The translations under genes were made by a program, and so were the position numbers. A stretch of DNA of 63,993 bases, the filler included, from Octopus bimaculoides (taxonomy: Eukaryota), in NCBI RefSeq assembly GCF_001194135.2. It is 8 parts of 7 records of this genome, joined end to end, with 100 filler letters (N's around TTAATTAATTAA, not from the genome) between each part and the next. Parts side by side here need not be neighbours in the genome. Positions count along the whole stretch, not along the records: positions 1 to 17,042 come from NC_068985.1; positions 17,143 to 31,797 come from NC_068996.1; positions 31,898 to 49,936 come from NC_068986.1; positions 50,037 to 54,466 come from NC_068996.1; positions 54,567 to 57,836 come from NC_068983.1; 3 more parts are not named here. One strand, 5' to 3'. Positions 12,179-56,200 of this stretch are shown piece by piece (position 1 is the first letter of the stretch; each line of letters starts with the position of its first letter). The notes under the pieces were generated by a model, which was given only the letters and a program-made list of their open reading frames with translations, did no database searches and was not told the origin of the DNA.

Positions 12179-12290
12179 TCATTATTCAGTTTTATTTCAA
12201 GATTTCTTGCCAATAGAGAAAGAGCCGGGTTCTAACCTAGACCCAAGGCTCCTTCAATGGAATTTCAATATCAACAACAGGGTATTTTTG
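12179..12290 (-). mobile_element. Short 3'UTR-only insertion of R4/Dong-like family, flanked by (TATG)n on both sides
   Basis: Near-identical to 40287-40400, which is contiguous with an RLE coding remnant. Confidence 0.75.
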
Positions 12291-12339
12291 TATGAATGTA
12301 TGTATGTATCTATGTAAGTTAAGGCATTAATAAGAATTA

Positions 12340-12726
12340 GAGAAATGCTTTGACTTGGCAGACCCGTTACTGGTATTTCGTCCGGCGTTCGTTCTGAGTT
12401 CAAATTCTGCCGAGGTCGACTTTGCCTTTCATCCTTTCGGGGTCGGTAAAATAAATATCAGTCTACCAGTGGGGTCGATGTAATCGGCTGTTCCTCTCCA
12501 CCAAAATTTCATGCTCTGTGCCTATAGATGAAAAGATTATTAAAAGTTAGAAGGCGGTAGCAAGCTAGCAGAATCATTACCGCGCCGGACATATCATTTA
12601 ATGACGTTTCTTCCGACTTTACGTTTTAAGTTCAAATTCTGCCGAAGCCAACTTTACCTTTTATCCCTTCGGAGTCGATGTAATCGATTATCCCATTCCC
12701 CTAAAATTGCTGGCTCTGTGCCAAAA
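12340..12726 (+). mobile_element. Two tandem tRNA-derived SINE family B copies
   Basis: B-box-like GAGTTCAAATTC and shared core GCCGAGGTCGACTTTGCCTTTCATCCTTTCGGGGTCG, as in 20752-21410. Confidence 0.8.
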
Positions 12727-13159
12727 NNNNNNNNNNNNNNNNNNNNNNNNNNNNNNNNNNNNNNNNNNNNNNNNNNNNNNNNNNNNNNNNNNNNNNNNNN
12801 NNNNNNNNNNNNNNNNNNNNNNNNNNNNNNNNNNNNNNNNNNNNNNNNNNNNNNNNNNNNNNNNNNNNNNNNNNNNNNNNNNNNNNNNNNNNNNNNNNNN
12901 NNNNNNNNNNNNNNNNNNNNNNNNNNNNNNNNNNNNNNNNNNNNNNNNNNNNNNNNNNNNNNNNNNNNNNNNNNNNNNNNNNNNNNNNNNNNNNNNNNNN
13001 NNNNNNNNNNNNNNNNNNNNNNNNNNNNNNNNNNNNNNNNNNNNNNNNNNNNNNNNNNNNNNNNNNNNNNNNNNNNNNNNNNNNNNNNNNNNNNNNNNNN
13101 NNNNNNNNNNNCTCTCTCCTTCGTCAATGTTTTGTAAATATACAAACTACGGAGCTTAT

Positions 13160-13428
13160 GGACAACACATTGCAAATCAGTGAACTTCATTATAAATGTG
13201 GGTAATTTTTCAGATTAACACTCGCACGATTTTCACTGGGGTGTTAGGGTTACGGTTTTGGGGTCAGGGTTAGGGTTTTAGGGTTACGGTTAGGGTTACG
13301 ATGAGGGTTAGTGTTATGGTTACGGTTTTAGGGTCAGGGTTAGGGTTTAAGGATTACGGTTACGTAATCATTGGCAGAACTGTGTAGCAACAGATCACCA
13401 GCAATTGCTTCATCAGAAATTGCCGTCC
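13160..13428. mobile_element. Unclassified short element with degenerate TTAGGG/TTACGG array (about 13240-13362)
   Basis: The array is seen directly. The ends GGAC...GTCC are only imperfectly inverted and no TSD was found. Confidence 0.4.
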
Positions 13429-13445
13429 TACCTCCTGCGAAAAGG

Positions 13446-52480: not shown

Positions 52481-53984
52481 CTTTACATTTTTTATTATGT
52501 AGACATATTAAGAATGTAGATAAACACATGTATATGTATATGTGTATGTGTATATATGTTTAAATTATATATAAATGTATGCATATGCGTGTATATACAT
52601 AAATAGCAGAACATATATACATCGATGAAAATCCACTATCACATATAGAAAAATTAACAATTAAAAGCACAATAAATGAGTATAATATAAAGCAAAGTAA
52701 ATATCATAAGATAAATATAATAAAATGATTACACGTGTTTCATAACTAATTTTCAAATAGAAAGGAAATTTAAATCGATTAAAATCAATTGAAATTATCG
52801 AAAATAAATTCTATTCAAAAATATAGCTAATCGTCAGATCGTAAATAGAACAATAATTAGATATATATATCTCAACCAACAATAAGTACCAAATGAATTA
52901 ATATGAAATACTTATTTTATAAAGATAGAAAAATTATTAAAAATATCAAAATATTAAAATAATAACCATTCAATAATCCTCCCTTCATCCATTATAATAA
53001 CATGTATATTATNNNNNNNNNNNNNNNNNNNNNNNNNNNNNNNNNNNNNNNNNNNNNNNNNNNNNNNNNNNNNNNNNNNNNNNNNNNNNNNNNNNNNNNN
53101 NNNNNNNNNNNNNNNNNNNNNNNNNNNNNNNNNNNNNNNNNNNNNNNNNNNNNNNNNNNNNNNNNNNNNNNNNNNNNNNNNNNNNNNNNNNNNNNNNNNN
53201 NNNNNNNNNNNNNNNNNNNNNNNNNNNNNNNNNNNNNNNNNNNNNNNNNNNNNNNNNNNNNNNNNNNNNNNNNNNNNNNNNNNNNNNNNNNNNNNNNNNN
53301 NNNNNNNNNNNNNNNNNNNNNNNNNNNNNNNNNNNNNNNNNNNNNNNNNNNNNNNNNNNNNNNNNNNNNNNNNNNNNNNNNNNNNNNNNNNNNNNNNNNN
53401 NNNNNNNNNNNNNNNNNNNNNNNNNNNNNNNNNNNNNNNNNNNNNNNNNNNNNNNNNNNNNNNNNNNNNNNNNNNNNNNNNNNNNNNNNNNNNNNNNNNN
53501 NNNNNNNNNNNNNNNNNNNNNNNNNNNNNNNNNNNNNNNNNNNNNNNNNNNNNNNNNNNNNNNNNNNNNNNNNNNNNNNNNNNNNNNNNNNNNNNNNNNN
53601 NNNNNNNNNNNNNNNNNNNNNNNNNNNNNNNNNNNNNNNNNNNNNNNNNNNNNNNNNNNNNNNNNNNNNNNNNNNNNNNNNNNNNNNNNNNNNNNNNNNN
53701 NNNNNNNNNNNNNNNNNNNNNNNNNNNNNNNNNNNNNNNNNNNNNNNNNNNNNNTGTGTGTGTGTGTGTGTGTGTGTGTGTGTGTGTGTGTGTGTGTGTG
53801 TGTGTGTGTGTGTGTGTGTGTGTGTGTGTGTGTGTGTCTAGCTGATGGAATGCGTCTTTATTGATTTGTTTCATGCTTAGCTTTGTGTTGTCCCAAAATA
53901 CAACCAACTCCGAACGTTGTTCAAATGACATTTATTTTTTATCGATGTTCATTACAATATTTACATTTTTAATTGTGGTTTGCC

Positions 53985-54450
53985 AGTAGTGCAATGTCGT
54001 GTGCTAGAATGGATCGAGCTGGATGGCAAACAAAAGTGTGGAGTGGAGTGAAAGCATTTGAGGAAGCCAGGATAACGCATGTAAGACTCAAAAGAGATTT
54101 AAGGAAGAATGTTACGATCGAGAAGGTGAATCTCAGTGACCTTTTTACGTGCACAGTTTGTGACAGACCGTGCCTTTCTTTTGCTGGGCTCAAATCTCTT
54201 TAGTGAACCCATGGAAAACGAACCTCCACCAACTGTATGTCTGTGCACACCTTTGAATGCAGTGCATGCCAGAAGGTTTGCAAATCTAACGGAGGCCTCA
54301 AAAGACATTTTAAGATCCACAAAGAGCAGAACTTATCTGCAGCTCTTCGTGGTCCAAATCGGATATGCAATCTGTGTGGATGTCTTTTCAGAACACTGTC
54401 TGGTTTTTAAAAAAAAACAAATCAGATGCGATGATGGTTCAAAGGTGTAG
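53985..54450 (+). mobile_element. RTE-like LINE C-terminal remnant with three C2H2 zinc fingers
   Basis: ARMDRAGWQTKVWSGVKAFEEAR...KRDLRK, then in the same frame FTCTVC...GLKS, FECSACQKVCKSNGGLKRHFKIH and ICNLCGCLFRTLSG, with stops. Confidence 0.7.
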
Positions 54451-55454
54451 GTACAGGAGGTGGTCANNNNNNNNNNNNNNNNNNNNNNNNNNNNNNNNNN
54501 NNNNNNNNNNTTAATTAATTAANNNNNNNNNNNNNNNNNNNNNNNNNNNNNNNNNNNNNNNNNNNNATATATATATATATACATCTATCCATATATATAT
54601 GTACATATACTATTGAACCTTGAGAGGGGCATTATGTATATATAGATAGATAGGCTGATAGCTAGATACACAAATATTCATATATATATCTATGTATATG
54701 TAAATTAAAATTAATTAAAGATGAAGAATAAGAAATAACTCACAATGACTAGTGAGATGTAGAGGAACATCATAAACAGATACAAGGATATCAAATAACA
54801 TATAACATTAAATTCATGATTATTTTAAAGCACCTCCACTTATGGAGGATGTGTCACAATTAGCAAATGGCAATTAGCAAATGACAATTAGCAAATGACA
54901 ACAGAATCCTGCTCTTCATGGCAAGGGGAAGTAATCTGAAGATTCACGAAAACTTTCCAAAGTTCTCGCGCCATTACGGAAAAGGTCAGTCTTATTGTTT
55001 GGAGATAAGATGACTGTCGTAGACATGTGTTTCTGCCTTAATAGGCGTCGTCAACACGACAATTCTTCAGCCGTATCTATAGTAACAAAGAGACATAGAA
55101 ATATGCGAAAAATGTAAAACAGATTTATAACTTAGATAATCTGCATAAATTTAATAAAAATGAGCTAAGAGAAGTAACTCAGTGTCCAGTAACACGTATA
55201 AGAACAGCCCAGACAAATCTATATGTATCAAATATCATACAACATAACTTTCAATTTACTAACGTTGACTCTGCCTCTAAAGAATGTGTCACAATTATCA
55301 AATGCTAATGGAGATGTATGAGGGTTATCGAATTCGGTAAACAAGAAATTAATTTTATCATCATTAATGTTAATAAACCAGCCAACAGCAGCAAAACTGA
55401 TATAGCTCATAAAATGTTTGTCAAGTACCTAAGATAAGTGTTAACGTTATTATA

Positions 55455-55804
55455 CACACACACAAACACACAAACAAACACACACACATGCACGCACACA
55501 CACACACACTTGCACGTACACACACACACACACACACACACACACACACACACACACACACACACACACACACACACAAACACACACAAACACTCACACA
55601 CACACATGCACGCACGCACGCACACACACACACACACACACACACACAAACACACACAAACACTCACACATACACACATGCAAGCACACACACGCACACA
55701 AAAATAACCAAAACACACATTGGCAAATACACATATATACATACATACGTAAGTATATACATACATACATACATACATACCTACCTACATACATACATAC
55801 ATAC
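55455..55804. repeat. Compound (CA)n/(CATA)n microsatellite
   Basis: Direct reading. Confidence 0.9.
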
Positions 55805-56200
55805 AGGACATCTATGGACCATTAATAAGGAGTTTGCAAATCCCATACACAAGATACACTTTCAGCTTTATACCTATTATTGTTGGAGTAACAGGATATA
55901 TATATACTAACCACTGCAAAGCAAAGTAAGGCTGAACTTGAGGAGAGAACGCAAATCCTTGATTCATACCCGTGTATTCATACGCAAGTCCTTGATTCAT
56001 ATCTGGGACTATAAGAATCTGCCAGAGTTTCTTAAGATTTAAAGGTGGCTGAACAAAACGATACTTTGCTTCGCAACTTTGCTTCGCAACTTTGCTTCGC
56101 AACTTTGCTTCGCAACTTTGCTTCGCAACTTTGCTTCGCAACTTTGCTGCAAAGTAGGTGGCCAGGTAAAATTTATTTTAAATTAAAAACAGAAAGAGAA
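55805..56200 (+). mobile_element. 5'-truncated R4/Dong-like copy (RLE C-terminus + 3'UTR) flanked by (CATA)n on both sides
   Basis: Reads DIYGPLIRSLQIPYTRYTFSFIPIIVGVTGY...ISGTIRICQSFLRFK. The 3' end AATTAAAAACAGAAAGAGAA resembles the 3' end of the 23183 copy. Confidence 0.78.
56063..56151. repeat. 13-bp minisatellite ACTTTGCTTCGCA, 6 perfect copies plus a partial
   Basis: Direct reading. Confidence 0.95.

Follow-up and report, generated by a model that had tools for sequence, protein, structure and literature searches.

The 63,993-nucleotide stretch of Octopus bimaculoides DNA analyzed here (the window; parts of several records of assembly GCF_001194135.2 joined end to end) contains six decayed copies of non-LTR retrotransposons (LTR, long terminal repeat) of the restriction-like endonuclease (RLE) type, related to R4 and Dong. 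The copies, named A, X2B, X1, C+D, E+F, and G, were delimited by tblastn and hidden Markov model matches to full-length proteins of 1130–1160 amino acids, to which they match colinearly. They are dead copies of several families that encode a reverse transcriptase (RT), a zinc knuckle, and an RLE, and that lie beside (CATA)n in a single orientation, where they probably arrived through cutting and priming within CATA arrays already present. The copies and their adjoining tracts, including open reading frames (ORFs), untranslated regions (UTRs), and an element with terminal inverted repeats (TIRs), are as follows.

12146..12179, minus strand: (CATA)n tract, 3′ of copy A
12180..12288, minus strand: copy A, the final 109 nt of a 3′ UTR, including the conserved stem-loop
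12289–12315: CATA-like tract at the 5′ junction of copy A, possibly internal to the element
23068..23183, minus strand: (CATA)n tract, 3′ of copy X2B
23184..~26257, minus strand: copy X2B, a decayed ORF with a short 3′ UTR; 5′ end placed by eye
26258..26271, minus strand: degenerate CATA spacer of ~15 bp separating X1 (3′ end) from X2B (5′ end); tentative second tandem junction
~26272..28855, minus strand: copy X1, decayed and RT-bearing, head-to-tail upstream of X2B; both ends placed by eye
40288..40480, minus strand: copy C+D, 3′ part, a 3′ UTR containing a CATA-like stretch along with the stem-loop; CATA at the 3′ end
40481..41379, no strand assigned: TIR element of ~900 bp within the 3′ UTR of C+D (inverted match of 40480–40692 to 41379–41165, 81%)
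41380..41717, minus strand: copy C+D, 5′ part, the final ~110 ORF codons; truncated 5′ at the RLE domain's PD motif
41718..41729, minus strand: (CATA)3 spacer separating E (3′ end) from C+D (5′ end)
41730..42713, minus strand: copy E+F
42714..42800, minus strand: (CATA)21 tract adjoining E+F at its 5′ truncation
55731..55803, plus strand: (CATA)n tract adjoining copy G at its 5′ truncation
55804..56200, plus strand: copy G, the final ~80 ORF codons and 3′ UTR; CATA at the 3′ end

Copy X2B, which consists of the copy B of an initial annotation of the window together with a part upstream of it, is near full length. Its ORF matches approximately amino acids 160–1157 of the full-length relatives, spanning RT, zinc knuckle, and RLE, and is broken by a (CT)n tract (24142–24250). 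A 5′ end of B in this tract is ruled out by the continuation of the ORF through a decayed RT to ~26257; the ~5 kb of RT-bearing sequence at 24250–28855 had been absent from the initial list of copies. Six-frame translation revealed zinc-knuckle and RLE-type segments in B, D, F, and G, along with two more decayed RT regions on the minus strand at 24250–28900. Decayed equivalents of the CCHC, RHD, and PD-(D/E)xK-type endonuclease motifs are present in B, D, and F. The decayed window RT taken alone had no match in Pfam or in PDB. Mapping of full-length relatives detected no zinc knuckle or RLE segment in X1, which likely lost them through internal deletion. C and D are not separate copies; they form a single copy split by the TIR element at 40481–41379, whose flanks are colinear with copy E; we take this element to be a mariner-like miniature inverted-repeat transposable element (MITE). 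Copy E+F is composed of a 3′ UTR and ORF end (41730–42048), an assembly gap (42049–42568), and a zinc-knuckle segment (42569–42713). We infer that E and F are one copy across the gap, with ~135 codons missing as compared with 520 N. The 3′ UTR of copy G holds a perfect 13-bp unit repeated 6.6 times (56063–56148).

These copies had been described as a single family. DNA identity is 88% between A and C and ~80% between C and E, the 3′ UTRs of B and G differ from those of the other copies, and protein identities range from 8/31 to 27/34 over short overlaps, with 158/452 for X1 and X2B; judging by these comparisons, the copies belong to several families instead. A profile of the window copies' own UTRs found no additional copy, and a search with nhmmer using the 3′ ends of loci from outside the window did not recover the window copies (best E 1.6). 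Of 20 candidates from a search with copy D, none represented the window's own family in intact form, which is weak evidence.

The nine junctions reported in the initial annotation are all present with CATA on the element strand, and the (TATG)3 separating two copies at 41718–41729 is real. We considered a junction to pass if, within 9 bases, at least 11 of 12 bases fit CATA periodicity. Of the 12 junctions, 11 passed with sense-strand CATA (9 of 10 distinct tracts) and none with antisense CATA, as against a probability of 0.017 (2018/116562) for a random point. Ends of other interspersed repeats in the window, used as controls, passed in 2 of 58 cases in either polarity (Fisher p 1e-8); the junction p-values are optimistic, because the X1 junctions and the X2B 5′ end were located by eye. 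The 3′ junction starts C-W-T-A (W, A or T) in most aligned ends. Four 5′ truncations had been described within CATA of the same polarity. Three of these stand, at 41717, 42713, and 55804 (55805 in the initial annotation): they are defined by homology as internal to the ORF, and all adjoin CATA.

Raw reads of Octopus bimaculoides (1934 Mb, library type 'other') were mapped to 41380–42048 at 80% likeness. Depth peaked at 2641, which would be roughly 2700–4000 copies if the genome is assumed to be 2.0–2.9 Gb in size. The loose ends of 269 reads at 41717 share a plus-strand consensus of (TATG)n (agreement 0.65, adjacent depth ~713), which equates to CATA beyond the 3′ end of the element. A weaker consensus (agreement 0.54) was seen in 38 contigs at the same mapped 3′-end position, and two other organisms also carry the family mapped here.

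A search with the decayed window RT returned 47 proteins, one of them from Argonauta hians, and many of them full-length products of a single ORF (1130–1160 amino acids). The Pfam domain RVT_1 was present in all five full-length relatives scanned, and CCHC knuckle, RHD, and PD..E motifs in all six checked. Searched against PDB, the profile matched R2 proteins best (E 1e-50). Pfam detected no APE (apurinic/apyrimidinic endonuclease) domain in five full-length proteins, which have a C-terminal RLE instead. Their aligned N-termini have no CCHH motif and contain a Trp-anchored segment that is common to this lineage and to a group of (TAA)n-flanked elements. Elements of the R4 clade are not known to have N-terminal zinc fingers, and their N-terminal domain is helical (Myb-like).

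Scanning metagenomes with an alignment of 22 proteins yielded 39 loci from 132 candidates. Among genome contigs, 1 of 27 candidates was a relative (L040, without flanks), and none of 28 candidates among viral contigs was; the ESM Atlas gave only RT clusters without a name. Intact ORFs, for which the initial annotation had proposed a search, were found in loci L003 and L007, which have 17–28 CATA units directly on each side. Eight loci carry (CTTA)n at one or both ends (L001, L002, L004, L006, L008, L010, L011, and L012; L008 and L011 are near-identical), and (TAA)n or (TAAA)n occurs at L015, L017, L019, L020, L023, and L025, among others. As in L003 and L007, the array lies on both sides in L006. 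L001 has a tandem pattern, with the 3′ end of another family followed by a CTTA array. A downstream CWTA array is reached in 7 of the 13 lineage loci that include the ORF end, and no antisense array is among those listed for the 40 loci. In the 5′ array beside the element in L010 (positions 1–60), CTTA units occur together with CATA units, which hints that one target can stand in for the other. In L015 (positions 84–167), tRNA-like sequence directly follows the (TAAA)n tract on the 5′ side of the Dong-like ORF.

In a tree of 30 proteins (G, being too short, and six further rows left out; rooted with a plant L1-like outgroup only), the window copies, CATA loci, and CTTA loci form one clade (support 99/98) apart from the TAA-flanked group. 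FastTree runs likewise part the CWTA lineage from that group. The CTTA loci L010 and L012 are the first branch within the lineage, and the approximately unbiased test (p 0.39) neither establishes nor rejects that CATA use arose only once. Repeat unit follows lineage, with 4 changes as compared with a shuffled mean of 8.1 and none of 200 shuffles as low, a contrast inflated by near-copies. The lineage is sister to the (TAA)n-flanked Dong-like elements in this tree, which includes no named R4, HERO, or NeSL references. By eye, the RT motifs fit R4_Hmel and R4_AL and not HEROTn (supplement to PMC7650587). On these sequence comparisons, the lineage probably belongs to the R4 clade or its sister. 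The earlier label R4/Dong-like is amended in that the lineage is separate from the TAA-flanked Dong-like group and is partly flanked by (CTTA)n. This branch of retrotransposons likely aims at the four-letter repeats CATA and CTTA.

A stem-loop with a two-base bulge is located 35–48 nt from the 3′ end in A, in E, and in all eight lineage locus 3′ ends. It has no or one mismatch, its stem sequences differ yet pair, and 0–4 of 200 shuffles were equally good; it is weak in two TAA-type loci. Single-sequence folding of nine end segments was mostly unremarkable (z −0.3 to −2.7). An Rfam scan of seven loci detected no 5′ hepatitis delta virus (HDV)-like self-cleaving ribozyme, although divergent ribozymes may escape it, and otherwise gave just repeat-driven miRNA and snoRNA matches and one tRNA. 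Within the first 40 nt past the 5′ array, L002, L003, L006, and L007 have in common a GGAYGTG motif, which could be an internal promoter or an RNA element.

Beyond the domain anatomy, polarity, register, and array-embedded relatives observed here, we propose a mechanism modeled on R2 and R4 biology. The protein would bind its own RNA through the 3′ stem-loop, and its N-terminal domain would recognize the repeat. A nick on the TATG (or TAAG) strand after G would leave a free end to prime cDNA synthesis, and orientation and register would thereby be fixed. Incomplete reverse transcription would leave copies truncated at the 5′ end and linked to CATA units upstream. With target units persisting on both sides, later copies could land beside earlier ones, head-to-tail with short spacers.

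The CATA tracts might instead be made by the element: a (CATA)n 3′ tail would be carried along or generated by slippage upon unspecific insertion, and CATA at 5′ ends would come from template jumping between RNAs or from annealing of cDNA ends to repeats close by. Such a tail would account equally well for the six 3′ ends and the raw reads, two of the 5′ junctions are tandem (41718–41729 and 26258–26271), and the 3′ UTR itself contains a CATA-like stretch. However, the ORF-internal truncations of E+F and G abut long CATA tracts (~21 and ~18 units, respectively) upstream of which no element 3′ end was detected, an upstream CWTA array is present in 6 of the 7 lineage loci with an ORF start, and the tandem partners belong to different families, and so we consider a self-made tail improbable. 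Also quite improbable, in our estimate, is a loose bias toward AT- or CA-rich repeats with passive retention in repeat-rich regions. CATA-class tracts occupy 1.4% of the window and CA tracts 1.7%, the 5′ flank of X1 is CA-rich, and for Drosophila Waldo-A and Waldo-B, build-up near CA repeats has been explained as passive (PMC3812793). Against such a bias, polarity and register are strict, control ends pass so seldom (2/58), and the repeat unit tracks the TAA and CWTA groups of the tree, with the inflation due to near-copies already stated.

The pattern might also be put down to assembly joins made at microsatellites, or to microsatellites having grown at the element ends after insertion, since the window comes from a gappy short-read assembly (27 N runs), contigs of the relatives end inside arrays, and a (CT)n tract did arise within the X2B ORF. 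We find this hardly credible: mis-joins would not produce the same polarity and register in different families and hosts, raw reads bear out the 3′ CATA flank, and ~95% of the sampled words of 24260–29200 were found again in runs from other samples. The reading put forward in the initial annotation, that the elements inserted in fixed orientation into (CATA)n already present, is supported, in a small sample, by the ORF-internal truncations at 41717, 42713, and 55804, by the double flanks of L003 and L007, and by the raw reads at the 3′ end.

A number of observations weigh against insertion into pre-existing arrays. The 5′ junction of copy A at 12290, the fourth truncation of the initial annotation, is ambiguous, because it falls where C and E have a CATA-like stretch within their own 3′ UTRs. 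The 5′ flank of X1 is a miss, matching CATA at 9 of 12 bases. Two 5′ junctions share their tract with the 3′ end of a neighbor, so that only E+F and G are clean 5′ cases free of a tandem neighbor (2 of 3 if X1 is counted, p ~0.0009). Target-site duplications are unreadable inside a repeat, and no 5′-truncation junction is among the loose-end rows listed for 41380–42048. As for the relatives, 6 of the 13 loci with an ORF end stop without reaching an array, and the 5′ side of L004 is an AAT run that is possibly in-frame coding sequence for poly-Asn. The loci are short, are probably collapsed contigs, and seemingly come from few hosts, so that they do not amount to 10 independent hosts. The stem-loop is weak in B and C and went undetected in G and X1, and the test of it is lenient, as the pattern was drawn from the same sequences.

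Dong, DongAg, and DongBg are RLE elements of the R4 clade that are specific for (TAA)n (PMC3812793, PMC3774820, PMC3636483). The window lineage resembles them in having a single ORF with RT, CCHC knuckle, and RLE, a microsatellite target, R4-type RT motifs, and TAA-flanked loci as its sister group. Unlike Dong, its likely target is the tetranucleotide (CATA)n or (CTTA)n rather than (TAA)n. The window copies are 18–29% identical to the TAA-type group as compared with 39–66% to the best proteins of their own lineage, and the C-terminus reads ..GTVKIxKTF in the lineage versus ..GTAHILRKVL in the TAA/Dong type. Dong in the R4 lineage carries an HDV-like ribozyme (PMC3774820), in contrast to the result of the Rfam scan, within its reach, for the seven loci. 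The lineage works like Dong and by its target is not Dong.

Dong-R4 LINEs (long interspersed nuclear elements) abound in cephalopods, and the accessible text of the reports gives no target sequence (PMC9115989, PMC8967140, PMC13282606, PMC10294476). They include a full-length consensus in O. bimaculoides and five families with 1129 recent insertions in O. vulgaris (PMC9115989, PMC8967140, PMC13282606). Dong had no match in 8 of the 12 supplementary files of PMC9115989 and no mention in the accessible part of PMC12988792. The window families may be among these octopus LINEs. If so, and if the targeting is true, the Dong-R4 LINEs of octopus-brain work would insert non-randomly, which would change the calling and interpretation of insertions.

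WaldoAg1, WaldoAg2, and WaldoFs1, which are R1-clade elements with an APE endonuclease, are specific for ACAY (PMC3812793). (ACAT)n, identical as a repeat to CATA, falls within this class. Waldo differs in using APE rather than RLE and in its clade. Waldo elements have a two-ORF layout. CATA use by both Waldo and the RLE lineage would be convergence, and since the repeat is already described for an APE-type element (PMC3812793), the target itself is not new. Other microsatellite targets are AC for Mino, TC for Kibi, and TTC for Koshi (PMC3812793), TTCC/TTTC for Tx1 (PMC4494074), and, among RLE elements, (TG)n for Togen along with the targets of some HERO families (PMC4640811). Togen and HERO differ from the CWTA lineage in clade and repeat unit. 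We found no RLE lineage targeting CATA or CTTA in the literature, although Repbase, Dfam, Kojima and Fujiwara 2004, and Fell et al. 2025 may hold one (PMC13586686 and PMC13580325 are reviews of the Fell et al. survey). Such a lineage would add tetranucleotide specificity to RLE retrotransposons, converging with Waldo on one repeat. The one-base target difference between intact proteins of the CATA-flanked L003 and L007 and of the CTTA-flanked L001, L002, and L006 makes target reading by these proteins directly testable. It is conceivable, though on balance doubtful, that a widespread, CWTA-specialized lineage sister to Dong switched its target by one base and renews its own landing pads, its thousands of copies both exploiting and spreading the abundant CATA.

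Elsewhere in the window, a decayed RT of another LINE type, presumably RTE-like, is followed by a 66-bp tandem array (32757–34545, plus strand) and is not flanked by CATA. An ORF remnant (51962–52441, minus strand) presumably resembles the region upstream of an L1/Tx1-type RT. Two transposase remnants (7473–7985 and 44482–44898, both minus strand) are, as we take their motifs, of the mariner/Tc1 type. Long inverted repeats typical of MITEs are located at 18230–18820, 35245–35417, 48046–48204, and 49684–49839. Short TTAGGG-type repeats occur at 1219–1254, 13243–13347, and 46153–46184, two of them within a dispersed repeat family. A 2.9-kb degenerate ACGA/ACGT tetranucleotide satellite (57952–60834) is CpG-rich beyond the rest of the window.

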